IMG/VR virus record: IMGVR_UViG_3300032298_000389
Length of the DNA stretch: 59,979 nt
Strand: one strand, 5' to 3'
Source of the DNA: an uncultured virus (IMG/VR IMGVR_UViG_3300032298_000389)
Lineage: Duplodnaviria; Heunggongvirae; Uroviricota; Caudoviricetes
This document shows positions 6,788 to 41,289 of this stretch, one piece after another. Positions within the stretch are counted from its first letter, which is position 1. Each line of letters opens with the position of its first letter. Position numbers and translations under genes: made by a program. The notes under the pieces were generated by a model. That model did not search any database. It was given only the letters and a program-made list of their open reading frames with translations, and was not told the origin of the DNA.

Positions 6788-6797
6788 TATATCTCAA

Positions 6798-10205: not shown

Positions 10206-10247
10206 ACTTTACAGGTTTAATAAACTTAAAAAATTTTAATAGTTTTA
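10203..10247 (+). promoter_or_regulatory. Putative phage (late) promoter, second copy: TAAACTTTACAGGTTTA plus TAGTTTTA
   Basis: 15/17 match to the 2026-2042 palindrome, with the TAnnTTTA core at 10240-10247, again at a 37-nt offset. It ends 14 nt before the ATG at 10262. Confidence 0.6.
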
Positions 10248-10261
10248 CACAAAGATAGATT

Positions 10262-13200: not shown

Positions 13201-13441
13201 ATTAAAAGCTATAGGTTCTGATGGTAATCCAATAATAAAATCTTTACCTATGGATCCAAAAATAAGTGGTCAGACTATTGAACAGATAGAACAAACTATG
13301 TGGAATGCAATTGTTGAAATGGATAAGAAAAATCTTGAAACATTTAGAATGTTTCACAGAACCAATAATACAGAAGCAATTCAAAATGCAATGAAACCTT
13401 CAAACTTTGGTGGTACTAATCCAAATGCATACTGGAAATAA
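10262..13441 (+). CDS. Putative virion ejection/cargo protein (1059 aa)
   Basis: Long, Cys-free, largely helical ORF directly upstream of the three giant genes. The function is inferred from context only. Confidence 0.65.
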   Translation: MATYLQGVTDYIPDYQPFQPDLNFYANLLQTKQTQYDTNWNQLNNLYGQLYGADLTHDQNIKKKDELLKQIDFNLKRVSGLDLSLEQNVNQALQVFRPFYEDKYLIKDMAWTKNWKNTYADADSLKNSSDPKQSSKWYAEGIRGLEYRRQMFKDATLDETLMMGDAKFTPKVDVLKEYMDFAKKYDIGMVTQTPDGMYMVRKKNGEQLLPGLQQIFWAQYGNNQAMQDYYRELAFVERMDHATQNAEKFGGNKLEAEKQYLKEKYNWLKNVVASNQVKAKDESNTAQNLVAGVQNDVNQGNVNPQQGTYEEELNKLLGVTTEVEKVTSDVNAKLNTNLTTSPSSAADDLLNNIELARLKVDAGFASYKAGVDIQNAAGTYAYSNYEIEYKPNAVAITQFKEAQANSRLQTAHKMKLAEAEYADKLKRIGKYEDAMVESGRAYRKADGTIELDPTHNGYEQIITGNLDSGQSAGDQTQFDVLNQKIIDEVITGKVGPGVESMMQYVNNLVNNSTGSKLTSAQLGQILNHFRANDPTIDRLINEGKKYPDQTKAKQIWNQIYNEYANGDKTKFAKDVTKYGDIYHLNWYLKEWNKRNPGSDLVQNYNKKQEIFDLEVYGRRQEAMDITRAENARKIQSKLKENIDFQAKKLNEQGYKISNDQVNKAVQVVMNEYVASGYNWAAMRENAGEIDKLISSQLGANFIKSTETNRDRSFWEYIPGIYSAEGTYDVLTGNRKNVASSWINDILDKSYVELASEENPDKGLKLFVQDVSRSGDMISLASKTQMVKVDSDYAGDFGYQAAKQAIQNALDLPMGDDTKFKFAFGNTIPTNADGEVDYSQDGLDDKLAKSLLSTLYSKLGQKGTPDFMLGTSRVAMENSKLGSTTFNIPRSIVEEVMKSVEGEYTPQQLAQMTDKIVQNGITAIAPHEYWTHKLWNKSTPTASEIVLSTRPIEYESPQKGGRYIINKVNGVPGKDYDVLFELKAIGSDGNPIIKSLPMDPKISGQTIEQIEQTMWNAIVEMDKKNLETFRMFHRTNNTEAIQNAMKPSNFGGTNPNAYWK

Positions 13442-13449: not shown

Positions 13450-16400
13450 ATGGCAGAGAACTCTCAAAATAGTAATCCTACACCAATGGATGATTTTTTA
13501 GCACAAAGTGATGCATTAAATCCTGCTAGAATTGAACAACCTGGACCTATTCCATTTAATTTTAATGAACCAAAACCAGTAATTAATCCTATATATCCTA
13601 CAAAAGATTATGGAACTGGTGCATCACCAAACTATTATCCATCACAGGTAAAAGATAATTCACCAAATAATCCTCAACAATCTATAGATACATTGTTTAA
13701 TGAAACAATGAACAAGATCAACGGTGCTCAAGATACTAATAATTATGGATATGCCTTTGGTTATGATAGTTCTCCTAAAGGAACATTTAGAGATAGGATT
13801 AAAGGTTATGGTCAAGAGACGTTTAATAAAATTGGGTTTAGTCCATTAATAGATAATGAAGCTTGGTTCAATTCAAAAACAACATTTAGTGATGATTTAT
13901 CTAGATGGTGGAATCATTCTGCATGGCCTATGATGTCTAAAGGGTTTATGGACCCTATTAAATCATATGCAAGTGTAATAAGTGGTGATGGTCTTTTTAA
14001 TGCAGATGAACAAAGTGCAAGAGACTATGAATACTATAATGCAATAGGTCAGTCAAGTAAAGGTGGTCTTGGAGGGTTTACTGTAAACCTCTTTAATTCA
14101 GCATCCTATTCTATGGGTATACTTACAGAAGGTGTTGTAGAATCTGTTCTTATTGAAGGTCTTACAGGAGCTGCTGGTCCAGCCGGTGGACTTGTTGGTG
14201 CAGGATTTGGTCTTGGTAAATTTATGAATAAGCTTTCTCAAGTACCTAAAGGATTATATAATACTGCTAAAGGTACTATTAAGCTTGCTGAGACTATGAA
14301 AGATTATAGTCAATTGTCAAAGGCAAAAGGTCTTTTTAAAACTGCATCTGCAAACTTTGGTAACTTTTTAAATCCAGCAAGTAATACTACAAGAGCTTTA
14401 TTTGGTCAAAATATTAATAACATAAATGACCTTGCAAGAGCATCTAAAACAGCAGGTGCATTCTGGCATGACATGATGGTAATGAACTTAGCATTATCAG
14501 AAGGTAAACTTGAAGGAGGTTTTACAAAATATCAAACATATGATAGATTGTATAATGAATATGTTGCTGATCCAAAAAACAAGGGTCAAGCTCCTTCATT
14601 AGAAGAACAAGAGAACATGATGAAAGAAGCTACTAAAGCTTCATTTTGGAATACTCTTAATAATACTGCACTTATTTTTTATTCAAATAAACTTGTTTTT
14701 CCTTCACTGACTAATGCTAGTTTTCTAAAGGGAGCACCTAAATTTGGATTTGGTACAGTACTAGGTGATATTAATAAAGAGTATCAGTTAGTATTTAACC
14801 CAGGAAAAAATATTGCAAAATCAACATTCTCAAAAGAAAAGATTGGATTAGTTAATGCAATTAAATCTTTAGGAAGACCTGCAACATATGGTAAAGTAGG
14901 TCTTAATTACTTTAAAGCAAATGTAGTTGAAGGTGTTCAAGAATCATTACAAGATGTTCTTCAAGAAGCTACTCAAAACTATTATGTAAATACATATAAG
15001 AATAATGCAGCAAAGAATTTTTTCTATGGTGCTGGACTAGTTGGAGATGCAATCAATAAACAATTCTCTGCACAAGGTGCTGAAACATTCTTATCAGGAT
15101 TTTTAATGGGTAGTCTACTTCAGGCTCCTAGTAAAATAAAAAGTTATATGACCATGGGTTATAATGACTATTTTAAAAAGGATGCAAAGTATAAAACTTA
15201 CATGGAAGAAAGAGAAGCTGCAGCTAATGAAGTTGTAGAACATATGAATACCATGTGGGAAAATAGTCATTACTTGTTTGATCCAAGAATGACTAATTAT
15301 GCTACACAAGCTTTATTATATGATACAGTTGCTAATCCTGAAGAAACTACTACTAAACAAATTCATGATGATAAGTTTGCAGCATTTCAAACTGCAGTAA
15401 TAAGTTCATTGCAGAGAGGTACTTTTGATATGTTTATTAAACATTATGAAAATTACAAACAAGCTACTCCTCAAGATATTGAAGAAGCATGGCATCTTAA
15501 ACCAGGTCAAGGTGCAAAAGCACTACAAAATTTTGGTGAGTCTTTAGAAAATGCAAAGAAGATTGCATATAGATGGGGTGAAGCAAAAGATAATTTTACA
15601 AAATATCAAGCTGACTTAAACAACTATGAAAAAGATAGTTATCAGTATAAGATGGCTGAAATATATAATCAAGCATTTTCTCAGTCTTTGTTTAACTATG
15701 TATTTTTACAAGGTGCTTTTGATGATACATCAGCAAGGATAGGTAAGTTATATAATAAACTTGCTCAGTTATCTACTATTAAAAATTCAAACTTTGCAGA
15801 CTTTGCAGGCTTTACAGATCCTGGTAGATTACAAAGAGAAATTGAGATGATGAAAACTGACATAGAAACATTAGAGCAATCAGGTGTTCCTATGGCAGCA
15901 GAAGATCTTGAAAGAAAAAGAAAAGTATTAAGTTTATATACTGACTTCCAAGAAAAACAACACACTATATTAAACACTTATATTGCTAAACAAAAGTTAA
16001 CAGCTCTTACAGAAAAATTATTAGAAGATAATCCTGATCTTACAAGAGAACAGCTTAACTTAAAAGTAATAGATAATCTATTAAAAAAGTATGAGAACGG
16101 TGAAGTGACTGAGTTTGATGAATATAAAACTTCATTTAAAAATCTCTTATTTGGACTAGCAAAAACTGAAGAAGAAAAACTTCAATTACAACAAGAGATA
16201 AATTCAATCAAGGGTGGGATAGATACTTTATTTGATGATCTACTTGATACACACATCTTAAAGAATGAAAAGAATGAACTAGCTCCATTGATTAATATTC
16301 TTTCTAATCCTAATGATTTTTATGATCATCTATTGAGAAACTTTCAATGGATGAAAAATCTATATCATAATAAAAGAAATCTTATTAAAGATATAGTAAA

Positions 16401-19400: not shown

Positions 19401-20691
19401 AAATAAAATCAATACAAGAGAGATTACTGCAAGAACATTTGAAGTAAACAAACTTATCAGTAAAAAATCTGAATTGATTAATAAAAATAAAAGAAGAACT
19501 CGTAGAGGTGGTAATACAGATGATTTAATCTTTGCATTAAACAGACTACCAAATAGATTTCAAAAACAAGTTTCTTCAGGTGAGCCTACAGATAGAGAAG
19601 ATCAAGTTAAAATGATTGCTCAATTGTCTGAATCAGAGTCTGTTACAAGAGAGATTGACCGTATCTTGTTTGAGCATGGAATGCCAAAAGATGTAGAAAA
19701 TATTATTGATGGTAAAGTAGATGATCTTACCTCTGCTAAAAAAAGAAATTTAGATGATTGGGGTATTGAATTAATTATTAAACTTGAAGAATACCAGAGC
19801 AGACTGGCTAATGAACAAAGATCAACTGTTCCTGTAGATAATATTATAGAAGCAGTAAATGAACTACTGAATAATATAGCTACAATAAAATTTAATAAAA
19901 ATGGAAAAATCAGTAAAAAATCAATCAAAGAGTTTGCAAAAGCCCGAGCAAAAGTACAGCAGGGGACAAATGTATCTCCTATTCAGAAGTCTACCGGAGC
20001 AGCAACAGAGGGAGTTCCTGGACAAGCAGTATCAAGAGAAGATCTTACGAAACTCATCCAAGAGTCTAGACAAAGGATCCAAGGTATAGAGATTGGAGAA
20101 ACTCCAGTAGAGGATGAAGATATCCAAGAGATCAGATCTAAGATGGAGGTAGCATTTGAGGATGCAACTTTAGATACAATTGATACTATTTATGCAAATG
20201 CAATAATAGAATTTACATTTGGATCTGATAAGAATTTTAATATTGATATAGGTAATATACTTAATGAAATTTGGCAAGCAAAAAAAGATGCTCTTCAAGA
20301 AGATATGTCATTAGAAAATCTTGATGAAGGTGCCATACTAATTAACAGACAACCTTTCGGTACATTTAAAAAAACAAACGAAGTGTTTACTGTAAAAAAT
20401 GTTGATTCTGAAGCTCAAACTGTAGAATTATTTAATCCAAAAAGAAAGAAAAGTTATACCTTTACTGAGGAAGAAATTAAAAATAATTTTATGAAACCTA
20501 TAGATGAAACAAAACCTATAGAGGAAATAACTGTAACACCTCAGATAAAGGAAAACATTAGATCTACTGAATCTAATATAACAGATTTAGCCAAAAATCC
20601 TGATGCATTAGATCAAATTGAAGAAGAAAGTGAAAATCTTTCCCCTGAAGAAAGATTGGATAAAATAAAAAATATTTTTAATCAGTGTTAA
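13450..20691 (+). CDS. Giant virion ejection protein (2413 aa) with Gly-rich membrane-type segments and a PD-(D/E)xK (RecB-like) nuclease domain
   Basis: GLTGAAGPAGGLVGAGFGLG and FLSGFLMGSLL in the N-terminal part; SGTNLD...GVTGELDLLLIDTDGNLAIVDIK...YFRAQQSIY at about 18180-18670; long acidic coiled regions. It is adjacent to the virion RNAP, as in crAss-like phages. Confidence 0.75.
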   Translation: MAENSQNSNPTPMDDFLAQSDALNPARIEQPGPIPFNFNEPKPVINPIYPTKDYGTGASPNYYPSQVKDNSPNNPQQSIDTLFNETMNKINGAQDTNNYGYAFGYDSSPKGTFRDRIKGYGQETFNKIGFSPLIDNEAWFNSKTTFSDDLSRWWNHSAWPMMSKGFMDPIKSYASVISGDGLFNADEQSARDYEYYNAIGQSSKGGLGGFTVNLFNSASYSMGILTEGVVESVLIEGLTGAAGPAGGLVGAGFGLGKFMNKLSQVPKGLYNTAKGTIKLAETMKDYSQLSKAKGLFKTASANFGNFLNPASNTTRALFGQNINNINDLARASKTAGAFWHDMMVMNLALSEGKLEGGFTKYQTYDRLYNEYVADPKNKGQAPSLEEQENMMKEATKASFWNTLNNTALIFYSNKLVFPSLTNASFLKGAPKFGFGTVLGDINKEYQLVFNPGKNIAKSTFSKEKIGLVNAIKSLGRPATYGKVGLNYFKANVVEGVQESLQDVLQEATQNYYVNTYKNNAAKNFFYGAGLVGDAINKQFSAQGAETFLSGFLMGSLLQAPSKIKSYMTMGYNDYFKKDAKYKTYMEEREAAANEVVEHMNTMWENSHYLFDPRMTNYATQALLYDTVANPEETTTKQIHDDKFAAFQTAVISSLQRGTFDMFIKHYENYKQATPQDIEEAWHLKPGQGAKALQNFGESLENAKKIAYRWGEAKDNFTKYQADLNNYEKDSYQYKMAEIYNQAFSQSLFNYVFLQGAFDDTSARIGKLYNKLAQLSTIKNSNFADFAGFTDPGRLQREIEMMKTDIETLEQSGVPMAAEDLERKRKVLSLYTDFQEKQHTILNTYIAKQKLTALTEKLLEDNPDLTREQLNLKVIDNLLKKYENGEVTEFDEYKTSFKNLLFGLAKTEEEKLQLQQEINSIKGGIDTLFDDLLDTHILKNEKNELAPLINILSNPNDFYDHLLRNFQWMKNLYHNKRNLIKDIVNSEISNIERNTLLNELADQKIFVDLDEFAKWIENPMYRPEGFIDVANNAYIPKGSLLYDKYYKIFERAAQLESTKPAGEPVPDAEVLQDIIDDLTKDRDKRLDLAKQKFDQALKDKYDATELELRKLAEEALNSVGEDLESEQAKLDIYKEWLSDLESLTGIEKAAAGLVNADIIDNQELLDATDALFDNPDLTDTIIELRNKIMKANPEMDADNAIRNAGFYLSTKPLIEDLIKEQEDLVKNIKTPDFINVEETPEWEQYQKELTDINDEYEAQVKEAKLDFVESGGNPTDVREYSIEDQFEDYPEDLQEELNGVFDDFLTTRTNEPNTLKQDDPGRYNTLRERWMENDPVAQDILDKYNEKSKQEAIKNATVGLTPPKLLFGDAVIEPGTPLTNITDLYDAYEKAIQTKELETETGKIKLSADDIKAIKEDMKAIAAYIDSKEKAFRLKPIAQEVIERIENTIFNRQNELVLSVDEEGFESRRFRDSKPEDPRPERATEVASLMEQEIEDKAPFVFNKLEDNSIQNLFREIVLDNPIGSLEERVDAFLASLRNYEQFKSDTKIAGIKESLMLDQSIENLEDVISKYAFKESSDSGTNLDAIIRQFLTLDPRGGFVQVNYDSVINVRGTEKKVSEMMSKEAFDFMFHPVTGSATRFRRNMIDGGYQLFTNDVKVFDRNARDGRGVTGELDLLLIDTDGNLAIVDIKAAQEKTWNNLGVPNVISKKTGKEILDENGQPIKNRGNKKTYFRAQQSIYRNSIYNMSGLDAGILLYPIEMVVTKDGFITKLSKPTADLTKFNTLSENGMFIVLEPIDDAIMQKFGFNRTGPTDTVELSQMGEEEAPIKAGSIPISDPEKTTLNDFVNQDVIYQGKLGKLVVNLDGGFSVEVSEDGKIVQYDVNVSGKNTKDGTMNIVKAGLSPITAAELTGQVTQIAGQTINARFLDKSERTAEINGVTYTINRDATGAIISLTYNTNDKAIAETQKEIDELNKEINDLKKEPKNKINTREITARTFEVNKLISKKSELINKNKRRTRRGGNTDDLIFALNRLPNRFQKQVSSGEPTDREDQVKMIAQLSESESVTREIDRILFEHGMPKDVENIIDGKVDDLTSAKKRNLDDWGIELIIKLEEYQSRLANEQRSTVPVDNIIEAVNELLNNIATIKFNKNGKISKKSIKEFAKARAKVQQGTNVSPIQKSTGAATEGVPGQAVSREDLTKLIQESRQRIQGIEIGETPVEDEDIQEIRSKMEVAFEDATLDTIDTIYANAIIEFTFGSDKNFNIDIGNILNEIWQAKKDALQEDMSLENLDEGAILINRQPFGTFKKTNEVFTVKNVDSEAQTVELFNPKRKKSYTFTEEEIKNNFMKPIDETKPIEEITVTPQIKENIRSTESNITDLAKNPDALDQIEEESENLSPEERLDKIKNIFNQC
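19901..20089 (+). CDS. Candidate overprinted small gene (62 aa, +1 frame inside the 2413-aa gene)
   Basis: A-rich start context (ACAATAAAATTTAATAAAA-ATG), and the host frame shifts to atypical codons over this interval. Confidence 0.45.
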   Translation: MEKSVKNQSKSLQKPEQKYSRGQMYLLFRSLPEQQQREFLDKQYQEKILRNSSKSLDKGSKV

Positions 20692-20692
20692 A

Positions 20693-23600
20693 ATGGCTTG
20701 TGAATTAAATGTAGATGCTGTAAAGTACGTATATGGTTATGTATATGGAGAAATATCAGATAGAGAATCTGGTAAAAATAAAAATCCTCTTGACATAAAA
20801 GTCATGATGAAAGACTTCTATAATTATCTTAATAGTTTACCTAATGATGGATTTGAGTCAGAAGAGGATAAAAAAGAAAAAGCATTATATTTTGCTCAAT
20901 CAATACCACAAATTCTAGGACTGGTAGCAGCAAGACCAAAAGCAAGAGATTACATTCTTAAAACAAATACACAACTTTTTATAGACATCCCAACACTTGC
21001 TAGTGAATACTCTGATATAAAAAAGGTTGAAGTATTAGTTAAGCCTACTATTAAAACCAGAAAGACTGCTAAGAAAGAAGTTATTGAAGCCTTAGAAGAA
21101 AAATCTGTACCAAAGGAAGATGAAACTAAAAAATACTCATATGCTGAGTATGCCTCAAAAGTAATATATCCTAACGGAACTAGTGGTCAAGAAGCAGTTC
21201 CTATTGATCCTGAGACAGGTTTACCAAAAAATGAAAAAGATCCAGAAAAAGGATTATTTTATGAAGTCATAAAAGACATTGTATACATTGTAAAAAGTAC
21301 TACCAATGATGAGGTCTTATATGGAGAAGATGAATCTGTATCATTAGCACTAACATTAATGCCAGTATCAAAAGCTGATCCTGCTATGTTTACATCTAAA
21401 GACAAAATAGATCAAAAAACATATGGTGTTAGAGGTATAGTTGCAATTATTACTGATACTGCAGGAAATGAAGTATACTTTAATGATGATGGTAGTATTA
21501 ACAGAGATGGTAATGGTCGTAGAATTTATCAGTTTGTAAGAAAACCATATGTTGAAAATGGTAAATTATTTTTTCTTAATAAATACAATAAAAAAACATC
21601 ATTAGTTCCAGCAGAAGAAGTAGCAGAAAACTGGGCTAAACAAAAAAGAGCACAAAAGATTTACCCTAAAAAAGAAGAAATAGCTGCTAAAGTAGTAGAG
21701 ATTAGAAACAAACAAACTAAACTGTTTAATGACTTACTTAGACTTAGAGAATATATTGAAAGTACTGAGGAAGCTGTAACTGTAAAAATTACTGATGGTA
21801 GTTTTGGAATGTCTAATGATACTAAAAAGTTTTACCCTATTCAAGAAACTGGACTTGGTGTAGAAGATTTAGATTTTAAACCATTAGGTGATGATTATCC
21901 AGGTAGATGGGGTGTTGTAATTAATAAAACCAGACCAGGTGTAACAGTAGATCAACTGCTTTTATTACAAAGAAGTAATATATCTGATGACCTAGCTGGT
22001 CATATTGCAGATATACTAACTACAAAAGCTAAACTTAAAGGTAGAGAACTTACACCTCAACAAAGAAGAGAGTTTTTTGAAAACTTTATAAATAATGATT
22101 TTGAAGAAGGTGAAATTACTAGTCCAGATAAGATACAAGTAAAAGAAAGTGTAGATGAAAATGGTCAAGCTATTTTAAATGTTAGTATTAATGGTGAAGA
22201 ACCTATTCCTCAAAATGTTTTATATACTGAAAAGGGTAGAAAATTAATATTTGATCATTTAAAAACTGCTAAAACTGACTGGGAGTTATATGAAAAACAA
22301 ACAGCTAAAGAAAAAACAACTTATAGTGCTGCATTAAATTATGTCAATACTTTGATGGGTCGTAGTTTTACTGATTATATACTTGATAAGTCTACAAATA
22401 AACTTGCTGAAGTAGAAGAAGATTACTTTGAGTTTATTAAAGATAAAATGCTTATACAGTATCCTGCAGATACTGCTGCATACTTCTCTGGTATGAATGC
22501 CTATTTGAATTTTGGAATACCTCAAAATATTATACCTGCTAATGAACAAGTTTATGAGTTAGGTGAACCTGCTTCAAATAAAGAAGATAATGCACCTGTA
22601 AAAAAAGCTCAGAATTCTGAACCTAATGCCAAAGTAAGAAATGTTACTAAATATCAAAAGGCAAAAGATTTATATAATGAAGGTAAGGGTACTTGGGGAA
22701 TGAGACCAGCAACAGGATTAGAACCTCTTGTTCCATTTGCTGAACATGTAGGAAATCCTTGGTCAACACAAAAAGATGCATTGAATAAAAATGTTCTTAT
22801 TGTTAAAGATGTGGCAACTGCTGTAAAGAATTATGAAGATTGGTTAACTGGAAAGAAGTTTAAAACAGTAGAACAAAAAAGAAGAAAGTTTATATTAGAT
22901 GCAATTGAAAAAGGTTGGTTTAATAATACAACTTTTATCTATTATAAACCTGTTGGAAAAAGCTACAGATCACATGTTGATGTACTTGTTGATATGATCA
23001 ACAAAAGAAACAGAGTTGAAAGTGCTGATATTATTATTAATGAACCTATAGAGCAACCAAAACCAGCTCCTAAAAAACAAGCTGTAGCTGTTAAAGCTAC
23101 AGTAAGTAGTATTCTAAATAATAAAAATAGAAAGCAGTATTTAAAAAGAGATGTAAAACTTAATAGTTTTTTTGAAAAAATATTTACTACTAAAAAAGCA
23201 AGAGATAAAGCTTTTGATTGGTGGGAACAGTCTTTTATATCTCAGACTAAAATAAATGGTGAAGCACCAATATCATTACAAAGACTTACAGAAATTGCTA
23301 ACTCTGATGCTGTTGCTACATTTGATAAGTCAGGTATTACTTTATATAAGGGTAGTACTAATATTGATATCTATCATGAAGCATGGCATGCATTCTCTCA
23401 ATTATTCTTAACTCCTGAAGAACAAGAATCATTATATGAAGATGTATTAAAAACTCCAAAATATACAAATAAAAATTATGCTACAAAAGAAGAAGCATAC
23501 TCTGATATAGAAGAAGACATAGCAGAAGATTTCAGATCATTTATGAAGTCTGAAAAATTCAAAGAATCTCTACCTAAATTTTTGAGAACTATATTTGAAA

Positions 23601-31141: not shown

Positions 31142-34100
31142 TGTCTTGTCAAGTACAAATTAATACTATTAACTTATTACAAAAGAATAATGTAATTGAT
31201 GATTTTTCAAAAGGTGGTAGAAACAGAATATTAAATATAACTGAGTTTGATAGACTTAATGATAAGTATACTCAACTTGCTAAAATAAAATATCCTAATC
31301 TATCTCAAATAGATGGTCAATTACTATTTACTATAGATGAAATAGAAACAACTGATTCATCAAGATCAACTTACTGGAGAGATGCCAAGTATAAAACACT
31401 ATGGGCCGTCCCTAATAAAGAATTCTTTGATAAGATACAAGTAGAATTTGACAAAGCACAAATGCCAGAATCTGAACCACAACCTAAAGTAGGTCCTGAT
31501 GGTCAGTATAAATTATTTGGATTAAGTTTTGATGATCCTGAAAAACTTGAGTTTGAAACAACTACATTAGGTGTTATTAATCAGTTTCTTGAAAACATTG
31601 GTGTAGAACAAAGACTAGTGTCTAACTTCTATACTAATGAAGGAACTCCTGTAGAGGGTGCACTTGCTGCTGCAAACTTTATTAAAGGTACAGTAGATAT
31701 TATAGATGACTTTGAGAAAAGACCTTCTGCATGGAATAAACTTCCTGAAGAGGCTGCACACTGGTGGTATAGATTATTAAAAGAAGATTCTGGTCTGAAA
31801 AAACTATTGTGGGAGTCCCACAAAACAACTACAAAAAGAAATCAACTTTATAATACTGCTTACGGTAAAACAGTAAATAAACCTGAAGATCTTACTGAAG
31901 AAGCAATAGGACAACTTATTGCTGAAGCAATTAAGAAAATTGAAAATCAAGAAGGTGCACCAGAAGACTATGGTTTCTTAAGAGCATTTATTAAATGGGT
32001 TGATAGTTTAATAAAATCTTTTGTATCACTTGTAGAAGATCCATTTGAAGTAGCTGCAATGAAGATACTTTCATCTGACATGACTGATCTTATGAGCTTT
32101 GATGAGTATAGAAAACTAAATGATATAGTTTACTTTGATACAATTCTTGATGATCAATCTGTGGCTCCTATGGACTATACTATTATAGAAGATATAGGTA
32201 TTCCAGTTCGTCCTGGAAAAAACATATTTGATGAAGTAAATAGTAAATATTATTTTGTATTTAGTTCAGGAGAAGATATACTAAAAGGTAGACAATCTCC
32301 TAAGTTTGATACACAAGAAGAACTTGATGCTTGGGTCTATACAAATATAAAAGAGTATGCACCTAGACAAAAATCAAAACTTCAAGAAATTAAAGACACA
32401 GAAGTATTCTTTGATAGGCTTTTAAATAAAAAGTATAATAAAAAAACAAGATTTTTAAAGAAAACACTTTCAAAATATTATCAAATTGTTGGTGGTAGTA
32501 TGCAGTCAATGAGATTTGATAATTGGCAACCTTATGAAAATGACTTACAGATTACTAAACCACTTGATAAAAATGAGAAAAAGATATTAAAAAATACAAA
32601 CAATTATACAAATCTTACTCCAACCTTAAAAGTACTACCTTTAATACTTCAGAAATACAAAAAAAATCCAATTATACTATCTGAAAAATTAAAAGTAGAT
32701 GGTATAAAAAAACAGGAATCTGAAGTAATTGAGGCTGTTAAAGATTTAATTATAAAAGAAAATCCTAAATTAAAAACAATTTCAGCTGAAGATCTTGTTA
32801 ATGAAGTATATAATTATTTAAAAGCAAATTACACATTAGGTTTTGCAAATGAGTTAGACCATTTAAGTTATCGTATTAATTCTACTTTTTATAATACAGA
32901 TGGTGGTGAAGGTGTTGTAGAACATAATAAAATATCAATAAGATTTAATGATACATATCATTTAAAACGTGGACATTTTAAATATGCACCATCTGCTTGG
33001 GCAAATCTTACTAAATTTTATTCAAAAAGTTTAAGTGAAAAAGATGCTGTTTTATTACATGAAATTCAAAATGATAATATTGAACATCTTAGAGATTTTT
33101 TACGTAAAGATAATCCATTAGAAAGCTCATATGAATATTTTTTAAATGATGTTGCTAATCAATTACAATCAAACATTGATAGTATTTTAAACAATAGTTT
33201 TAAAATAAATAAAAACAGTGATTTTACTAGTTATTATAATCAAAGTTGGATTTCTTATTACATTATTGCAAATTCAAACAATTCTGTTGCTGATGCTTAT
33301 AGACAAATAAAACAAATGACTCAAGAAAAAATTGACTTGTATGACAGTTCAAATTCTAAGGAAGATGTTGATTTTTATTTAAAAGAAGTTGATAAAGCTT
33401 ATGGTAAAAGAATGATAATACAAAGTATAATAAGAAATGGTGGTCTTAAGGCTTTACTTACAAAACAACAAATAGATGAGATTCAACAGCTTATTAATGA
33501 TGCAAATAGTGGTGATTTAATAACACTTAATTGGAAAAAAAACACTTTTGCAAAAAGTATGAAACCATACATTGATATTATAAATGAAAATTATAAATCA
33601 AAATATGGTGTAGGACAAAATTTAATAGATGATGTATATCAGTTAACAATTAAAGCTCAACCTAGAAGTGGTTATTTAGATATAGATAGAAGTGTAAATA
33701 GATTTCTTTCTGCTAATACTACAAAGTTGTTAACTAACAGTAATGAAGTAATAGATGATACTAAAAAGAGATTAGTATCAGCATATAAAGCAGCAAGTGC
33801 TTATAATTTTAGCAAACAATTTATTAAAATAACAAAAGAACAATTTACTGAATTACGTGAAAATATATTGTTTAATCAAAATTTATTTGAAGAATCTATA
33901 GATATACAATCTAAAAAAGATTTACAACTTGCTGCATCAAATGTTTCTAATTTAACAGATTCTGAAATTATTTCTGATTTACAAGAAGATCCTTTTACTG
34001 GTTTTACTTATAAAGGTTGGTCATTAGATGCTTATACAGAAAAAGAAGCTATAAAAGAAGTTAGAGAATTAACTTCTGAAAGAAAAATAGAAATTCAAAA

Positions 34101-37100
34101 AGAAAAAGTTGAAAAGGTTAAAGCTAAAGCAGCTGTTAAAAAACAAGAACTTGATGAAAAGTATAAATCATCTAAACTACAAGCTGCAGATATTTTACCA
34201 ATGGAAATGAGTTATTTTACTCCATTAATACACTATACTATTCAAAAACATATAAAAGAAAATGGTAAAAACACACCATTATACTTTAGTGGTTTTAATA
34301 TTACTAAGTTAACTCAAGGAAATGATAGAACAGCACTTATATATGCTGGTAAAGATGAAGTAAAATTTACTAAAGAAGAAGCTGATAAAATTAAATATCA
34401 AGCTGCATTAAAATTAGGTCTTCTTCAAAGTGCTGATCAAATTGATGACTTAAAAGGAGAGTTAGAATATTACGAAGATTTATTACAAGCTGATGATGAT
34501 TATTTTATATCTGAATATTTTAATCAAGATGCTTTTGATAGGATATCAGTTGAAGAAAGAAAAAAAACTTTGATAGATGCAAAAGAAGTAGTTAAAAAAA
34601 GAGTAGATAATTTAAGAGATAAACTATCAAAATCAAAATCTTCTGAAAATGTAGAAGAAGCTTTAAAATTACTTGCTGATTATAAAAGACAATCTGAAAA
34701 CAATATGAATGATGTTGTCAATATGATTATGAATATAAGTAATTATCAACCAATTGAAACAGGTGCTATTTATAATGCAATGTCTCAAATTCCTGGAGTA
34801 AAACTAATTTGGGTACCTTCAATAGAAGGTATTAATGGAGAACCAGGAGGATATAAAGTAGATCTTACTAATTACAATTTTGAACAACCTGTACTATATG
34901 GTTTAGATACTACAGCAACTAAGTCTGCTGATACTGTTACTGAACCTACAGAGATGTATGGTATTCCATTAGTAGATATTAATGTAGATACTTTACAAGA
35001 TGCCAGATCTAAAAGAGTTGCTGAAGTTCTTGCTCAAAAATTAAGTCTTGGATTAAATATAAGATTTGAAAATATTACTCCAGAACAAGCAGCAAAACTT
35101 ACAAGAGTAAGTCCAACTCCTTATAATGGAGAAGCTGCTTTTTATTATGCAGGAACAGTATATGTAGTAGGTGATAATATAAATATTAATACTATACTTC
35201 ATGAATTTTCACATCCTGTAATCAATGGTATCAGAATAAAGAATAAAAAACTATTTGATAATCTTTATGAGTCTATGATGATGACTGTAGAAGGTCAGCA
35301 AATCCGTGACAATGTTCTACAGAAGTATCCAGAACTGGGATCTAATCCAGACTTACTTAAATCTGAAATACTTACATATGGTCTTCAGTTAGCTGCAGTT
35401 AATAAACTAACAGGTAAAATACAAAGTGAAGGATTTGAATCTGTTATTAATAAATTACTTGCTTCTATAAAACAACTCATAAGAAGTATATTTGGTAACA
35501 AACAAGGTATAAGTGACATTAATGTAGACACAACTATTGATGAGTTGGGTAGAATGTTACTTGAAGATGAGATTGATTTATCAGAGTATGATGTTACTAA
35601 TGATGACTTAATTCAGTATGGTAAGTTTGTAACAGAACGAGCAAATGAATTAACTAAATCAATGGGTTCCTTAGATTTAGAAAAAGTAATTAATGAATGG
35701 TATGCAAGTAACAAAGCAATTCTTGATAGAGCTAGAAATTTTAAAACTGATAAGGCAATAAAAGAAATGCTTACCAAAAGTATTTTTGGTGAAAAAGAAG
35801 GTTCTACTAATTTACTACCTGAAGCAGTATCATCATTAAGACGTTTTCAAACTATAACAGACTTTGGTAAATATAGTAAGGACCAATTGATGAATAAAGT
35901 TTTAGATGCTGAAGAAGATAGATTAAAAGAACTTGATAGACAAGCACGGGCTCTTATCAATAGTATTGATAAAATAGATGTCATTGCTCAAAACATGTTA
36001 AATGACTTAGGTAAAATATATAGAGAAAAAAATGTAAGTGCTAGAAATACAATTGCTCTTGTAAACTTCTATAAACAAAACAGTTATGCATGGAAAGAAA
36101 CCATTGATCAGTTTAATGAAATCATTAGAGAAGGTGGTCTTAGTATGGATAAAGATAACCTATTCTATAAAGTAATTAATAAAATCAACGCTAATCTAGA
36201 TGAAATCAACGTAGTTATTTCTCAAATATATAAGAAAAATAATATTCAGTTCTATGTTGAATTAACTGGACCTATGAATGAGTTTGTTCAAGATGAATTT
36301 AAAAAGAACTTGAATACAGCATTTAAAAATGCATATAAATCTGAGGCAGATAGAGATGCTGCTGTTGATAGTTTTTATAATAAAGTAATTTCTCAAGAAG
36401 ACGTTACTGATGATTTAGAAGCATTATATAAAAATGGTGTACCAAAAGATGTGCTTGTTAGATTCTTGAACTTATATCAACAAATGGTAGCTACTCCTGA
36501 AAAGATTCAGAATGCATTGACGGGACATGCAAAAGATGTAAGTTGGTTTAATAGATTCTTAGAAAGTTATACTTCTAGTAATGATCCTATTGTAGGTTCT
36601 TTAGCCTTATTTATCCAAAATCAAAGAACTGAAATTACAAATGACTTTATGGATGAGTCTGGTTCTTTCTTAAAATCACTGGAAAAACTATTACCTCAAG
36701 TAAACTTTACTAAACTTAATGTTACTCAGATACAAGATATGGTCACATATGAAGACACTATTTTGTATTGGGATAAAGATACCGGAAAACCAATTGAGAG
36801 AAAGATAAGAACTTTCTTACATGAGTTTGGTAATGGTTATAGATATGCTGAAGATATACTTGAGTACAACCTTGCAGAGGCACGGGCATCTAAAAATCAA
36901 GAAAATATTATTAAAGCTAGAGAAGAACTAAAAGAGTTTAAAAAAGATTACATGTGGCAGGAGTTTGTTCCTGAGTACTATGAATCTGATAAAGTTTATG
37001 ATGAAATTATACCTGGTTATGATGCAGTTACTAGTAAGAGAATTGCAATGGAAGCATATTCTGATAGACAAAATGCATTAGATGATTACAATAACTTAAT

Positions 37101-40100
37101 TAATGAACATGATGATGAATTGTCTAGATTTAAAAACTATTCAAGTCTACAAGCTGCATTTAGAAAGTTTAAACAATTAAGTGCACTTACTTATGAAGAT
37201 GGTACACCAAAAATGGATGACCCTAAGAAAGGTATATATGATTTGTCAAAAGCAAAACTACTTCAAAGAGTAAGTCAAGCAAAATCTAAGTTCTATGAAT
37301 TTGTACCTCTACAGAAGTCACTAGAGTCTGCTTATAATGAATTTATAAATAACCTAGGAACAGACGGTATTACTAGAGATAATCCTGACTTTGATAAAAA
37401 AGTAAAAGAGTGGAGAAAACAGAATCTTACAATGAAGTATGATTCAAGATATGCACAAAGGAGAAGAGAAATACTTGATAGAGTTGGTGAGTTACAGTCT
37501 AAGATGAACTTGTCATTTGACATGGCTGGTGCATATAGAGAAATCAATGATCTAATCTTTACTTATAGAGATGAACTTGGACAACCTATTACTCCTGAAC
37601 TAGGGGAAGATAAGATACAAAGAATCCAAGAACTTGAGCAATCAATAATTAACTTTAGAGAATCTTTAGATAGAAATTCAGGTTTGTCTCAAGAAGAAAG
37701 ATCATATCTCAATACTCTTACTGCAATGGTTAAGAAAGGTACTGAGTTATCTGATGAGCAAAAAAGACAAATGGTTAATTTGTTACAAAGACAAGCTCAG
37801 ACTGGATTAAGTATTACAGAAGCAGCAGAATTACAGAATCTTTTTGCAGAATTAGGGGACTTATCTGAAAAAATTCCTACTGATTATTACATGGATGCAT
37901 TAAACTTTCATTTGTCAAGATTGGAGGCTGGTGAAGTTACTGTAGATGAAGTAGAAGATTATATTAATGATGAAGAGTTTCAGGATTTACTAGAAAAAGA
38001 TGAAAAGCTTAGAGACTGGTTTGAAATGAACCATGTAACTAAAAAGAGAAAAGTAGATGGTAAAACAGTTATTAGTTATGAGCCTACTATTGCAAATAGA
38101 ATTACAGTTCCTGTAAATAAAGATTATATTTTGACAACAAAAATAGTTGATCAAGATACAGGTGATACTATTACATTAGAAGGTGTACCTAATGCACGTC
38201 ACTCAAGATATCAAGTTAAAAATGAATTCCGTACTATTCCTATAGGAGAGTCATGGGATAAATATGTAGGTATCTATGTAGATAATAAAGGTAACTATCT
38301 ACCACGTCTTCATGAACCGGGTAATAAGAATAGTGCAAAAGATGCAAGATTTATGAATCAAAGATTTTTTGATTTAAAAAGATCTAACAATGCAGAATAT
38401 AAGTTGCTTGAAGAAATGAAGAAGTTCCATCTTGGAATTCAGAAAGGACAAAGTAACTATTCTAAACTTTACTTAGACATGCCAAGATTTGCAGTTAAAG
38501 CTGGAGATTTATATCAGGCAATGCAAAGAGGTAAGATTGGTGAAAGATTTAAAAACTTTAGAGAGTGGAAAGATCAATTAGTTGGTAAGTCTGTTAATGA
38601 CTTTGAAAGAGGTTATAATTATGATGCTAAAAATAACTTAGTCAATACAGATTTAAAAGGAAATCAAATTACATATGTACCTGTTGAAGGAATCTTTAAT
38701 ATTGAATTAGATAAAACTGATGCTGATATTATAACAAGTTTATTTAGATATGGTATGTCAGTTAAAACTCAAGGTAAGTTACTTGAAAGTCTTCCTATTG
38801 TAGAAAGTATTGTAAGTACACTTGAGGACCCTGCAAATCAACCAAAGAATATGGATGCATATTCTAAAGGTATATTTAATGTAAGAAATTTATATCAAAA
38901 TCCTACAAAGGCTGGTGCTGAAAATAACAGACTTGGACAAGTTAGATCACTAATAGAAAGAGAATATTTGGGACAACAAACTGCTTCTTTTGAAGAGTCT
39001 AATCCAAGATTATCTAAATGGTTGGATATGATTCAAGGTTTATCCACTAGAGCATCTCTTGCTGTAAACATTCCTTCAGATTTAAAGAACCAGTTTTCAG
39101 GATACATGCAAAGTATGATTGAAGCTATAGGAGGTGAATTTATTACTTCTAAAGATTATGCTATGGCAGTTCCATGGTCAACTCAAGCACTATTAACTTG
39201 GGCATCCAAAGATGCATATGCTGTGGGACCTGGTTCACTTTCTGGACAAATGTTACAAAGATTTGATCCTACTTTTACTTCTGAAGATAAATTTGGAAAT
39301 TCAGTTTCTAAAAGTTTGATAAAAGATTTAGCAAATGGTTCTTGGATGTATGCTCACAGAAAATTTGGGGAAATGGATGTGGCTGTAAAATTATTTGGTG
39401 CATTTCTACATGGTCAAAAAGTTAATCAATTAGTTGGTGGTAAACAAGTTTCTATGAGATATGTAGATGCATTTGAATTAGACAATGAAGGATTAATGAG
39501 ACTTAAAGCAGGTGTTGATGCTGCATGGGATACTAAATCTGTATTTCATAATTATACTAAGGGTGAGTCTTTAAAACAAATTGCTGATAGATACAATGTA
39601 ACTGTTGAAGAACTGAAAAAAAGAAACAATATTGAATCTGAAATTCAGTTAGAAGATGGTCAAGAAATGGTAATTGCTAAGTCTGAAAAATTTAAAGCAT
39701 TTAAAAATAAATTACAGGGAACATCTCGTAGACTATTTGGTGCTTATGATAGATTTGGTCAACCAGAAGGTAATAAATTTATTGCCTATAGAATGTTCTT
39801 CTTCATGAGAAAGTGGTTTACTCCTATGTTAACCAACAGATGGGGATTTGATTCTAAAACTGGTGGTTTGTCAAGTGGTGGTGAAAGATATGACTGGGCA
39901 TTAGGTAGATATACTAAAGGTTACTATGTAAGTGCATTTCAAACATTAGTAAGATTAATTAAATCTAAAGGAGCTGAGATGTCATATATGACAGATCAAG
40001 AAAAAGCAGATCTTAGAAGAACTATGGCTGAAGGTTTAATTATTATTACAGCCTCTTTATTAGCAGCTATGTTATTTGGATTTGATCCTGATGATGATGA

Positions 40101-40536
40101 CAAATGGAAAAAAATTAAAGCAAGATCAGGTGCTATAAATGAAGAAAGTTACAATACATATGGATTCTTAACAAACCACATGTTGTTGTTACTACTTGGT
40201 GTACAGGCTGAAACTTCTGCTTTTGTACCACTACCAAAAATCTTTGGAGTAAATCTAGGAGCAGATGATTACACTAAAATGCTTACCTCTACTTCAGCAT
40301 CATGGTACAATACAGTAGTTCTTTATGTACAGATCATGGGAGATGTATTAAATTTTGTTACATTTGATGAAGCTGCTAGATATGAGAAAGATCAAGGACC
40401 ATACTGGTGGCAACAAGAAGGAGCACTTAAATTTTGGAAAAGAATGTTTAGTGTATTTGGATTTACTGGAGGTACAGGGGATCCAACAACAGTACTTAAG
40501 AACTTCCAAAACAGTTCAACTAGATATGGTGGTTAA
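31141..40536 (+). CDS. Giant virion ejection protein (3131 aa) with zincin-like motifs, a LysM domain and C-terminal hydrophobic segments
   Basis: EEAAH (about 31747) and HEFSH (about 35200) motifs; LysM-pattern HNYTKGESLKQIADRYNVTVEELKKRNNI...LEDGQEMVI (39547-39675); hydrophobic GLIIITASLLAAMLFGF and MLLLLLGV. The start overlaps the RNAP stop (TAATG). Confidence 0.75.
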   Translation: MSCQVQINTINLLQKNNVIDDFSKGGRNRILNITEFDRLNDKYTQLAKIKYPNLSQIDGQLLFTIDEIETTDSSRSTYWRDAKYKTLWAVPNKEFFDKIQVEFDKAQMPESEPQPKVGPDGQYKLFGLSFDDPEKLEFETTTLGVINQFLENIGVEQRLVSNFYTNEGTPVEGALAAANFIKGTVDIIDDFEKRPSAWNKLPEEAAHWWYRLLKEDSGLKKLLWESHKTTTKRNQLYNTAYGKTVNKPEDLTEEAIGQLIAEAIKKIENQEGAPEDYGFLRAFIKWVDSLIKSFVSLVEDPFEVAAMKILSSDMTDLMSFDEYRKLNDIVYFDTILDDQSVAPMDYTIIEDIGIPVRPGKNIFDEVNSKYYFVFSSGEDILKGRQSPKFDTQEELDAWVYTNIKEYAPRQKSKLQEIKDTEVFFDRLLNKKYNKKTRFLKKTLSKYYQIVGGSMQSMRFDNWQPYENDLQITKPLDKNEKKILKNTNNYTNLTPTLKVLPLILQKYKKNPIILSEKLKVDGIKKQESEVIEAVKDLIIKENPKLKTISAEDLVNEVYNYLKANYTLGFANELDHLSYRINSTFYNTDGGEGVVEHNKISIRFNDTYHLKRGHFKYAPSAWANLTKFYSKSLSEKDAVLLHEIQNDNIEHLRDFLRKDNPLESSYEYFLNDVANQLQSNIDSILNNSFKINKNSDFTSYYNQSWISYYIIANSNNSVADAYRQIKQMTQEKIDLYDSSNSKEDVDFYLKEVDKAYGKRMIIQSIIRNGGLKALLTKQQIDEIQQLINDANSGDLITLNWKKNTFAKSMKPYIDIINENYKSKYGVGQNLIDDVYQLTIKAQPRSGYLDIDRSVNRFLSANTTKLLTNSNEVIDDTKKRLVSAYKAASAYNFSKQFIKITKEQFTELRENILFNQNLFEESIDIQSKKDLQLAASNVSNLTDSEIISDLQEDPFTGFTYKGWSLDAYTEKEAIKEVRELTSERKIEIQKEKVEKVKAKAAVKKQELDEKYKSSKLQAADILPMEMSYFTPLIHYTIQKHIKENGKNTPLYFSGFNITKLTQGNDRTALIYAGKDEVKFTKEEADKIKYQAALKLGLLQSADQIDDLKGELEYYEDLLQADDDYFISEYFNQDAFDRISVEERKKTLIDAKEVVKKRVDNLRDKLSKSKSSENVEEALKLLADYKRQSENNMNDVVNMIMNISNYQPIETGAIYNAMSQIPGVKLIWVPSIEGINGEPGGYKVDLTNYNFEQPVLYGLDTTATKSADTVTEPTEMYGIPLVDINVDTLQDARSKRVAEVLAQKLSLGLNIRFENITPEQAAKLTRVSPTPYNGEAAFYYAGTVYVVGDNININTILHEFSHPVINGIRIKNKKLFDNLYESMMMTVEGQQIRDNVLQKYPELGSNPDLLKSEILTYGLQLAAVNKLTGKIQSEGFESVINKLLASIKQLIRSIFGNKQGISDINVDTTIDELGRMLLEDEIDLSEYDVTNDDLIQYGKFVTERANELTKSMGSLDLEKVINEWYASNKAILDRARNFKTDKAIKEMLTKSIFGEKEGSTNLLPEAVSSLRRFQTITDFGKYSKDQLMNKVLDAEEDRLKELDRQARALINSIDKIDVIAQNMLNDLGKIYREKNVSARNTIALVNFYKQNSYAWKETIDQFNEIIREGGLSMDKDNLFYKVINKINANLDEINVVISQIYKKNNIQFYVELTGPMNEFVQDEFKKNLNTAFKNAYKSEADRDAAVDSFYNKVISQEDVTDDLEALYKNGVPKDVLVRFLNLYQQMVATPEKIQNALTGHAKDVSWFNRFLESYTSSNDPIVGSLALFIQNQRTEITNDFMDESGSFLKSLEKLLPQVNFTKLNVTQIQDMVTYEDTILYWDKDTGKPIERKIRTFLHEFGNGYRYAEDILEYNLAEARASKNQENIIKAREELKEFKKDYMWQEFVPEYYESDKVYDEIIPGYDAVTSKRIAMEAYSDRQNALDDYNNLINEHDDELSRFKNYSSLQAAFRKFKQLSALTYEDGTPKMDDPKKGIYDLSKAKLLQRVSQAKSKFYEFVPLQKSLESAYNEFINNLGTDGITRDNPDFDKKVKEWRKQNLTMKYDSRYAQRRREILDRVGELQSKMNLSFDMAGAYREINDLIFTYRDELGQPITPELGEDKIQRIQELEQSIINFRESLDRNSGLSQEERSYLNTLTAMVKKGTELSDEQKRQMVNLLQRQAQTGLSITEAAELQNLFAELGDLSEKIPTDYYMDALNFHLSRLEAGEVTVDEVEDYINDEEFQDLLEKDEKLRDWFEMNHVTKKRKVDGKTVISYEPTIANRITVPVNKDYILTTKIVDQDTGDTITLEGVPNARHSRYQVKNEFRTIPIGESWDKYVGIYVDNKGNYLPRLHEPGNKNSAKDARFMNQRFFDLKRSNNAEYKLLEEMKKFHLGIQKGQSNYSKLYLDMPRFAVKAGDLYQAMQRGKIGERFKNFREWKDQLVGKSVNDFERGYNYDAKNNLVNTDLKGNQITYVPVEGIFNIELDKTDADIITSLFRYGMSVKTQGKLLESLPIVESIVSTLEDPANQPKNMDAYSKGIFNVRNLYQNPTKAGAENNRLGQVRSLIEREYLGQQTASFEESNPRLSKWLDMIQGLSTRASLAVNIPSDLKNQFSGYMQSMIEAIGGEFITSKDYAMAVPWSTQALLTWASKDAYAVGPGSLSGQMLQRFDPTFTSEDKFGNSVSKSLIKDLANGSWMYAHRKFGEMDVAVKLFGAFLHGQKVNQLVGGKQVSMRYVDAFELDNEGLMRLKAGVDAAWDTKSVFHNYTKGESLKQIADRYNVTVEELKKRNNIESEIQLEDGQEMVIAKSEKFKAFKNKLQGTSRRLFGAYDRFGQPEGNKFIAYRMFFFMRKWFTPMLTNRWGFDSKTGGLSSGGERYDWALGRYTKGYYVSAFQTLVRLIKSKGAEMSYMTDQEKADLRRTMAEGLIIITASLLAAMLFGFDPDDDDKWKKIKARSGAINEESYNTYGFLTNHMLLLLLGVQAETSAFVPLPKIFGVNLGADDYTKMLTSTSASWYNTVVLYVQIMGDVLNFVTFDEAARYEKDQGPYWWQQEGALKFWKRMFSVFGFTGGTGDPTTVLKNFQNSSTRYGG

Positions 40537-40721: not shown

Positions 40722-40910
40722 TTAATCATCTTCATCTTCACAACAGTCACATTTTTCTGTCTGTTGTGTTCCATATTCATTGTCAAACCAATCTCTTGCT
40801 TCTTTTTTAGAAGGATACTCATTAGAACCTGACTCAATTATAGATTCAGCACCTGCAAGGTATGCTTCAATCATTGCTTTTCTAAATGTTATTGGATGCA
40901 TCTGTGTCAA
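40722..40910 (-). CDS. Hypothetical protein (62 aa)
   Basis: Overlaps the end of the upstream gene, stops just before the terminator, and ends in CDCC plus an acidic tail. Confidence 0.6.
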   Translation of the reverse strand: MTQMHPITFRKAMIEAYLAGAESIIESGSNEYPSKKEARDWFDNEYGTQQTEKCDCCEDEDD

Positions 40911-41289
40911 CTTTAATAAACTTACTCAAATCTGGTCTGAAATATCCAGGTCCTTTAAGAATTTTCCCATCATGTCTAAGGATTGGTTTACCATCCTCAC
41001 CAAGTTTACTCATATTACTTGCTTGTATTTCATTGAATACATCAAGAATAATATGTTGCATACCATGTTTAAGAATTGTACCACATAAGATATACAACTG
41101 ATCCCCTAGAGCATCAGCAATTTCTACTAAAGACTTACTATAACATGCTTCTAAATATTCATCATTTTCTTCTTTCATAAGAGTGTGTCTAAGATCAAAC
41201 TCTGATGTAGGTAATAATATTGGCCACTGTCCATCTACTTGACCAAATGCTTTGTGGAACTCTGCCACTGCTTGTAATTGTTTTTCCAT
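40882..41289 (-). CDS. MazG-like/PRA-PH all-alpha nucleoside triphosphate pyrophosphohydrolase (DR2231-type, possible dUTPase)
   Basis: EENDEY...EIADALGD acidic metal-binding motif and SNMSKLGEDGKPILRHDGKILKGPGYF C-terminal signature. Confidence 0.85.
   Translation of the reverse strand: MEKQLQAVAEFHKAFGQVDGQWPILLPTSEFDLRHTLMKEENDEYLEACYSKSLVEIADALGDQLYILCGTILKHGMQHIILDVFNEIQASNMSKLGEDGKPILRHDGKILKGPGYFRPDLSKFIKVDTDASNNI

Follow-up and report, generated by a model that had tools for sequence, protein, structure and literature searches.

Cysteines of three giant proteins

The DNA analyzed here is a 59,979-nucleotide stretch (the window; IMG/VR record IMGVR_UViG_3300032298_000389) from an uncultured crAss-like virus. 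Three consecutive plus-strand open reading frames (ORFs), occupying positions 13450-40536, code for very large proteins, designated A, B and C, which together comprise 9,026 residues. Protein A (13450..20691) has 2413 residues, protein B (20693..31141) 3482 and protein C (31141..40536) 3131; in the chain proposed below, A would be member 1 and C the final member. A scripted count found only four cysteines in the three proteins (4/9,026 residues, 0.044%), all of them on facing ends. The sole cysteine of A is its last residue, Cys2413 (codon TGT, 20686..20688), and its N-terminus is devoid of cysteine. B contains Cys3, in a MAC start (TGT, 20699..20701), and Cys3481, in the ending DPFKNCE (TGT, 31133..31135), and no others. 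The sole cysteine of C is residue 3 of an MSC start (TGT, 31147..31149), and its C-terminus has none. The genes are closely joined: the DNA reads TGT-TAA-A-ATG at the A/B joint and GAA-TAATG, with overlapping stop and start, at the B/C joint. These features had been described in an earlier note on this DNA, and its cysteine positions (A 2413/2413, B 3 and 3481/3482, C 3) were exact by our computed count, as were the codons, the coupled joints TAA-A-ATG and TAATG, and the lack of cysteine at the outer ends of the trio. Its remark that the two cysteine-bearing C-termini resemble each other did not hold; their local score was equalled by 576 of 2000 shuffles, which is chance level.

Such a cysteine content is far below that of other proteins of this phage. 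For example, cysteine accounted for 0.4-1.5% of residues in the minus-strand replication genes of the same window and for 1.26% overall in 289 control ORFs (complete ATG-initiated ORFs of 100-1099 residues from all six frames of the window and 18 loci, spurious frames included). In the control set, a cysteine occurred within residues 2-6 in 11 ORFs (3.8%) and within the last four residues in 12 (4.2%). Yet A-C are not cysteine-free, since four conserved end cysteines are present. If uniform placement of four cysteines is assumed, the chance that the 12 positions lying no more than 3 residues from facing ends would receive all of them is (12/9026)^4, or ~3e-12, for the window alone.

The virion ORFs located upstream (172-13441) were nearly free of cysteine: none was found in those of 618, 275 and 1059 residues, and two (positions 1103 and 1116) were found in that of 1290 residues. 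The exception was a 1135-residue ORF (6798-10205) with 12 cysteines, eight of which were clustered at residues 788-850. Searches of the ORFs at 172-13441 against Pfam and PHROGs gave no matches.

To judge from homology, A-C make up the cargo block that a divergent crAss-like phage carries in its particle, and on the same grounds they are probably virion proteins that are ejected into host cells; both properties have been reported for homologous cargo proteins in the phi14:2 and crAss001 papers. Deposited phage genomes matched the window only weakly (cr4_1 and cr115_1), and Pfam and PHROGs searches with A, B and C recognized nothing apart from a LysM domain in C. On the alignment evidence, B is a homologue of the crAss-type virion RNA polymerase (RNAP), which upholds the label that had been given to this protein in the note. 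Its residues 1954-2723 aligned with residues 929-1679 of phi14:2 gp66 (PDB 6VR4; E = 7e-14 and 8e-10), and residues 1948-2449 with residues 1036-1493 of crAss001 gp50 (E = 4e-22). The phi14:2 paper names DFDID as the catalytic motif of gp66, and its counterpart in B is DYDID (residues 2439-2443, 28007..28021). In an alignment of 41 B sequences (alignment A1), D2439, D2441, I2442 and D2443 were invariant, and position 2440 was F in at least 90% of rows; thus, the window RNAP has Y in place of the F of DFDID, the form found in phi14:2 gp66 and in at least 90% of the relatives of the window protein.

The N-terminal part of B contains a zincin-like module with an HExxH motif (residues 895-899, 23375..23389), in which H895, E896 and H899 were invariant in alignment A1. 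The surrounding residues 844-951 aligned with residues 2105-2204 of crAss001 gp47 (E = 2e-6), whose HExxH is located at position 2157, near the C-terminus. As for C, its first 107 residues matched the first 99 residues of the protein that comes after the RNAP in phi14:2 (E = 3e-8), and the LysM domain lies at residues 2807-2845 (39559..39675; E = 2.4e-6, above the Pfam cut-off). Residues 1 to ~1290 of C (31141..35010), referred to as module X, are fused downstream in the window, upstream in two other loci (L008 and L004), and stand alone in a third (L012). In the ESM Atlas, module X resembled LPD39-carrying clusters (score 0.92, 166 shared features), a similarity which Pfam did not confirm and which we regard as a lead only.

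The end cysteines were conserved in homologues of all three proteins. A search of 5.8 billion proteins yielded 315 homologues of B, and the figures that follow concern the 120 listed, with 43-91% identity. All 115 that exceeded 3,000 residues started with MAC and had a cysteine 0-2 residues from the end, with EEDPFKC as the conserved C-terminal motif, and the five shorter ones (2358-2781 residues) lacked one end or the other. Internal cysteines summed to seven over the 120 proteins. Similarly, a C-terminal cysteine was present in 42 of 42 homologues of A (it was the last residue in 40), an N-terminal cysteine in none of them, and one internal cysteine in three. Homologues of C had a cysteine at residues 3-6 in 97 of 100 cases; the other three were a fragment without initial methionine (P0139), a protein with a probable wrong start (P0129) and one whose first cysteine was at position 20 (P0183). 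In alignment A1, the columns of C3 and C3481 were invariant. Among 25 C homologues with a mean identity of 30% (alignment A2), M1 and C3 were among only 11 invariant columns, and C2413 of A was nearly invariant in alignment A5. Conservation of the MxC starts and cysteine ends, which the earlier note had proposed to check, was therefore found in 115/115, 42/42 and 97/100 homologues of B, A and C, respectively. Judged by these comparisons of sequences, the cysteine pattern is not due to chance.

Cysteine pairs and gene breaks

We carried out a scripted census of cargo blocks in 22 phages, which comprised 13 deposited phages, 8 non-redundant IMG/VR loci and the window; crAss001, phi14:2, DAC15, crAss002, p-crAssphage and Fpv1 were in this set. 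Cysteines were found on both sides of 30 out of 30 junctions, at residues 3-6 on the N-terminal side and 0-24 residues from the end on the C-terminal side. At the outer ends they were absent: none of 15 complete outer N-termini had a cysteine in the first 10 residues, and none of 20 complete outer C-termini had one in the last 30. All proteins of the census together contained 147 cysteines in 132,678 residues. For example, the three phi14:2 proteins are 1797, 2180 and 1421 residues long, with cysteines at position 1797, at positions 3 and 2179, and at position 3, respectively. In crAss001, gp47 (2341 residues) has Cys2339, gp50 (2412 residues) has cysteines 5, 1334 and 2404, and gp49 (1349 residues) has Cys5. 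The blocks of cr111_1 and DAC15 showed the same pattern. The sequences surrounding the cysteines differed between lineages (FNQC, DPFKC, TKCRED and KYTC at C-termini; MAC, MSC, MICPN and MSKGC at N-termini), and the cysteine alone was constant.

Two apparent exceptions were removed upon closer inspection. In crAss002 gp33, whose first cysteine is at position 35 as annotated, an internal ATG gives the start MSCTPSNP, which matches MSCGNIKL of p-crAssphage and MSCTVFDI of ctbg_1; the annotated start (17088-17186 in locus L024) is probably 32 codons too early. In L011, the downstream ORF is split where bases are masked, and NPNCE*MSCINIY is the sequence of the joint. A separate observation concerned the Suoliviridae members cr4_1, cr109_1 and cr7_1 (L015, L025 and L026), whose genes contained many in-frame stops under table 11 (148 in cr7_1 gp32, for example), a feature that in these sequences is consistent with stop-codon recoding.

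One explanation of the pattern would be a nucleotide-level constraint at coupled stop-start joints, or simply chance. The tight joints TAA-A-ATG and TAATG, and the fact that B and C both start with ATG-NCT-TGT, agree with such a constraint. However, crAss001 and DAC15 carry B and C on one strand and gene A on the other, and the product of A still ends in a cysteine, which excludes an artefact of stop-start coupling. Besides, L008 and L012 have gaps of up to 57-425 nt between genes, and the cysteine positions vary on both the N-terminal (3-6) and the C-terminal side (0-24 from the end). Chance alone is opposed by the ~3e-12 estimate for the window. We consider this explanation negligible.

Fused and split genes were most informative. 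Proteins A and B are fused in Fpv1 and in the Suoliviridae cr4_1, cr50_1, cr1_1, cr109_1 and cr7_1. These fusions lacked an N-terminal cysteine and retained the C-terminal one, and the next protein kept its N-terminal cysteine. For example, Fpv1 gp33, a 4401-residue protein in which the RNAP part maps from around residue 1775, has a single cysteine at position 4400. In p-crAssphage, crAss002 and ctbg_1, where B and C are fused, the C-terminal cysteine of A and the N-terminal cysteine of the fusion were kept, and the C-terminus of the fusion had none. A more complex arrangement was seen in L008, whose 4093-residue protein (cysteines 3 and 4090) combines an RNAP part corresponding to residues 873-2731 of B with module X (residues 114-1288 of C). 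It had no cysteine at the position of the B/C break of the window, and a pair was found at its own break instead, consisting of a cysteine 3 residues from its end and of residue 5 of the following protein. The 4659-residue protein of L004 is built in the same way, with no cysteine at the window's B/C position and a pair at its own break. When remnants of the last 200 residues of B or the first 130 residues of C were sought in these two proteins, no significant match was obtained. In L012, module X is a separate protein of 1144 residues with cysteines 5 and 1143. Similarly, the zincin module lies before the A/B break in crAss001 and after it in the window.

Module X could be followed more widely. 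A search of 1.84 billion representatives at 50% identity gave 102 matches, of which 42 were tabulated (at least 536 residues, best stretch starting at query residue 147 or earlier); the 60 that were dropped were short fragments or had a best stretch starting later in module X, so that the start of the module could not be projected. Among the tabulated proteins that began with methionine, were at least 600 residues long and had module X at the start, 33 of 34 had a cysteine at residues 2-8, the exception being P0183; short N-terminal fragments of the module had a starting cysteine in 15 of 15 cases. In contrast, when module X was located at least 800 residues inside a protein, no cysteine was present from 400 residues upstream to 50 residues downstream of the core start (0/6), and the same six proteins had cysteines at their own ends. 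The 6,067-residue protein P0264 had one cysteine, at neither end, as expected for a fully fused form.

Two side observations were made in this set. In P0264 and P0142 (4526 residues) module X is upstream of DFDID, i.e. compared with the window the domains are permuted. P0335 (121 residues) and P0339 (141 residues) matched only the first ~105-112 residues of C and had cysteines at position 3 and next to last, as if the N-terminal domain of C occurred as a separate protein, a candidate mini-link of the chain.

In the sequences compared, the cysteine pairs track gene breaks and not homologous positions. The loss of cysteines on fusion, another check proposed in the earlier note, was thus observed in Fpv1 gp33, in the L008 and L004 proteins, and in all six internal copies of module X. 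The number of end cysteines in the sample was twice the number of breaks, which agrees with pairing between consecutive proteins of the chain at each break and does not fit pairing of each protein with itself or of A with C.

These data also bear on the possibility that the cysteines are relics of protease sites in an ancestral polyprotein cut by the zincin domain. A zincin-type HExxH is indeed present in B, and according to the phi14:2 paper, fused forms are probably processed into their components. However, cysteine was missing at the junctions of fused proteins (Fpv1 gp33, the L008 and L004 proteins, and 0/6 proteins with internal module X). In addition, separate genes require no cleavage, and a leftover residue would not remain invariant amid a near-total purge of cysteine. 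This origin is therefore very unlikely.

A proposed link between facing ends

A structural precedent for one such pair was found in cyanophage A4 (Anabaena phage A-4L). A cryo-electron microscopy study of this phage (PNAS 2025, PMC12002296) describes, in the portion considered here, a disulfide between Cys1715 of gp27 and Cys5 of gp26 in the pre-ejectosome, where the C-terminal helix of gp27 is inserted in gp26 and "further stabilized" by this bond. Our count in the genome showed that Cys1715 is the only cysteine of gp27 (1717 residues) and Cys5 the only one of gp26 (1114 residues). The pair is kept in Pf-WMP3 at 23% identity (1495 residues with Cys1494, and 1153 residues with Cys5). Thus, as in the window, two large ejection proteins located inside the capsid and encoded by consecutive genes have their sole cysteines on facing ends. 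The differences are that A4 has one link and no RNA polymerase, whereas the window would have a chain of two links that includes the RNAP, and that PMC12002296, in the same portion, treats the bond as a local stabilizer and not as a rule following gene breaks. The peptidase-type ejection proteins of these phages, A-4L gp28 and Pf-WMP3 ORF27 (L028 and L030), were seen to have exactly two cysteines, which form a CxxC ~20 residues from the C-terminus (positions 1036 and 1039 of 1058, and 975 and 978 of 994, respectively).

Based on these observations, we propose that the facing ends of the cargo proteins dock and are held by disulfides between successive proteins, A to B and B to C, which would connect the cargo head to tail in a thread of ~9,000 residues; we assign this reading a probability of about 0.6. 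According to this model, A-C would have been cleared of cysteine, like other ejected phage proteins, with one cysteine retained at each end that faces a neighbor. The C-terminal tail of each protein would dock on the N-terminus of the next, and in the assembled, oxidized virion the two thiols would form an inter-protein disulfide, linking the C-terminus of A to the N-terminus of B and the C-terminus of B to the N-terminus of C. The cargo would then behave as a nearly linear single thread of ~9,000 residues, in which a disulfide takes the place of the peptide bond wherever the giant gene was broken, and the reducing cytoplasm of the host would free the parts. Because the links would be at the extreme ends, the joined cargo would stay linear and could pass a narrow tail channel partly unfolded, and exit of cargo through the tail in a partly unfolded state has been proposed in the crAss001 paper. 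Disulfides between tail hub and ring proteins are known from crAss001 virions. We infer the disulfide itself, the time at which it forms, and any role in stoichiometric packing, ordered ejection or release.

The core idea that each C-terminal cysteine belongs with the next N-terminal cysteine had been put forward in the earlier note, and it is favored by the 30 of 30 junctions with empty outer ends, by pairs that vanish on fusion and appear on split, and by the cryo-electron microscopy disulfide of the same type in A4. Threading of the chain out of the capsid in gene order, and its release by reduction or by the zincin domains, were also put forward there and are hypothetical. The co-folding that this note had recommended for each pair of ends was run for the end of B (residues 3283-3482) and the start of C (residues 1-200), both supplied as alignments. 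The score was 0.37, compared with 0.00 for the best of three controls; runs agreed in at least 26% of contacts, and the predicted local distance difference test value (pLDDT) of the partner was at least 54. Of 157 solved complexes, 116 attained the mark used, as did 2 of 215 mismatched pairs; with a score of 0.60 or lower, it was attained by only 18 of those 157 complexes and by both mismatches that passed.

The same facing ends might be joined by a shared metal ion or by other thiol chemistry and not by a disulfide, and a metal bridge was also allowed for in the note. The comparative data show that the two thiols belong together and do not specify the chemistry that joins them; besides, acidic residues precede the cysteine in the EEDPFKC end of B. 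However, a metal site needs three to four ligands, and each side offers one cysteine, with no conserved histidine seen near either end. The flanking motifs vary widely among lineages, with only the cysteine constant, and in A4 the same signature is a disulfide. With one cysteine per side, no conserved histidine and varied flanks, a metal or other thiol link appears unlikely. Protein trans-splicing by a split intein was also considered and rejected: Pfam detected no intein or Hint domain even at E values up to 1, and the upstream cysteine is the last residue, compared with ~100 residues before the end in a split intein.

Several points speak against a disulfide-linked chain. The C-side cysteine can be as far as 24 (L012) or 15 (L014) residues from the end, and internal cysteines are tolerated in some members (13 in each protein of cr7_1, 8 in p-crAssphage gp44). 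Support from the B-C co-fold was weak, and no contacts were reported. Searches for homology to the A4 proteins were negative: comparison of A4 gp26 and gp27 with the window proteins by BLASTP gave E > 0.08, hhalign gave probabilities of 0.1 and 0.2, and profile searches of PDB with alignments A1 and A2 did not match the A4 chains, even though gp26 is present there as 9k3a_A. The precedent is therefore one of analogy, possibly convergence. With regard to oxidation, the cytoplasm in which virions are assembled is reducing, and the surroundings in which gut phages live are anoxic. Equal copy numbers of A, B and C were assumed. In addition, the cargo proteins gp47, gp50 and gp49 were not resolved in the cryo-electron microscopy study of crAss001.

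A further difficulty is that some end cysteines have no obvious neighbor, namely those of p-crAssphage gp47, crAss002 gp30 and an MSC protein of L014. They would be easier to understand if the end cysteines were functional but bound other partners, for instance the portal or capsid, a different cargo protein or a further copy of the protein itself, and the lone Cys2 of T7 gp14 points in the same direction. This alternative leaves unexplained why the outer ends are empty (0/15 and 0/20), why fusion removes both cysteines of one junction and spares the pair at the other, and why the end cysteines are twice as many as the breaks; we consider it improbable. With regard to the proteins concerned, p-crAssphage gp47 (L018; 857 residues, Cys856) and crAss002 gp30 (L024; 557 residues, Cys550) are encoded upstream of the block, and the next gene has no facing N-terminal cysteine in either case. 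The L014 protein, which starts with MSCVYKYN (16380-22081), follows a 689-residue protein that has cysteines 41, 44, 251 and 256 and none at its C-terminus; its partner, if any, is not the product of the adjacent gene.

Genome setting, related systems and significance

The cargo block is located after the structural ORFs and faces a minus-strand replication module at 41-58 kb, which fits a crAss-like genome. This module encodes a family B DNA polymerase, a PD-(D/E)XK exonuclease, a DnaB-like helicase, a Toprim primase and UDG, as well as a GIY-YIG SegE-like endonuclease (51848-52273, minus strand) and a DUF6915 protein (50909-51259, minus strand). A gene for a MazG-like PRA-PH protein is present at 40882-41289. 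No thioredoxin, Dsb protein or sulfhydryl oxidase was seen among the minus-strand genes of the window.

The closest relatives of the system are the cargo blocks of phi14:2 and crAss001, with a homologous RNAP core and zincin module, the same position in the genome and an identical cysteine rule. The window proteins differ in their far greater length and strong divergence, LysM being their sole match in PHROGs or Pfam, and in having the zincin module on the other side of the A/B break compared with crAss001. Cysteine is likewise strongly suppressed in the proteins of N4-like phages that exit the capsid via the tail, and in T7 gp15 and gp16, which have no cysteine. N4 gp50 and DEV gp71-gp73 are essentially cysteine-free, which the portion of PMC11445570 considered here explains by passage through an oxidizing compartment. 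In these phages no end cysteines are retained, and the N4-type RNAP is one chain of ~3,500 residues, so that there is no break to bridge. T7 gp14 (L029; 196 residues) has a single cysteine at residue 2. Polyvalent proteins from phages and from conjugative elements (Iyer et al. 2017, PMC5512222) are also giant, multidomain and co-delivered with DNA, often with a zincin-like peptidase; no LPD domains of these proteins were found in the window by Pfam. The part of PMC5512222 considered proposes proteolytic processing into units and contains no occurrence of cysteine or disulfide.

In the literature consulted, which included the phi14:2 paper in its bioRxiv version and did not extend to supplements, no statement of a terminal cysteine rule for crassviruses was found. 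The word cysteine does not occur in the crAss001 paper; cysteine, disulfide and Cys gave no matches in the phi14:2 bioRxiv version, and a 2026 N4 paper mentions neither cysteine nor disulfide. The earlier note had stated that no description of such a mechanism was known to its author. This is too strong, given that the considered portion of PMC12002296 reports one link for A4, and it is further outdated by the suppression of cysteine in ejected proteins of N4-like phages, known from the portion of PMC11445570 cited above. One such link and the purging of cysteine were therefore known before. What is new here is a proposed multi-link chain that includes the RNA polymerase, extends across the order and follows gene breaks.

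Among phages of the human gut, crassviruses are the most abundant. Structural papers leave open by what means these phages store more than 5 MDa of cargo protein, an RNA polymerase included, and then eject it. We would give even odds to the wider generalization that throughout the Crassvirales the RNAP and its partners are joined by disulfides into a thread of 6,000-9,000 residues at a 1:1:1 ratio, one protein pulling the next through the tail and the cytoplasm dismantling the thread, with an independent origin of the same device in A4-group cyanophages. For crAss001 and phi14:2, the rule predicts that the three proteins of the RNAP block would migrate together on a non-reducing gel, at their summed mass; in crAss001, given masses of 262.5, 276.9 and 154.5 kDa, this would be ~694 kDa. 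Such a chain, if real, would provide a mechanism for equimolar packing and ordered ejection, and it would explain both the purge of cysteine elsewhere in these proteins and the free tolerance of fusions and splits within the block. It would also make the MxC start and the cysteine end a marker for chain members, and a means of correcting start codons in metagenomic phages, as illustrated by crAss002 gp33.

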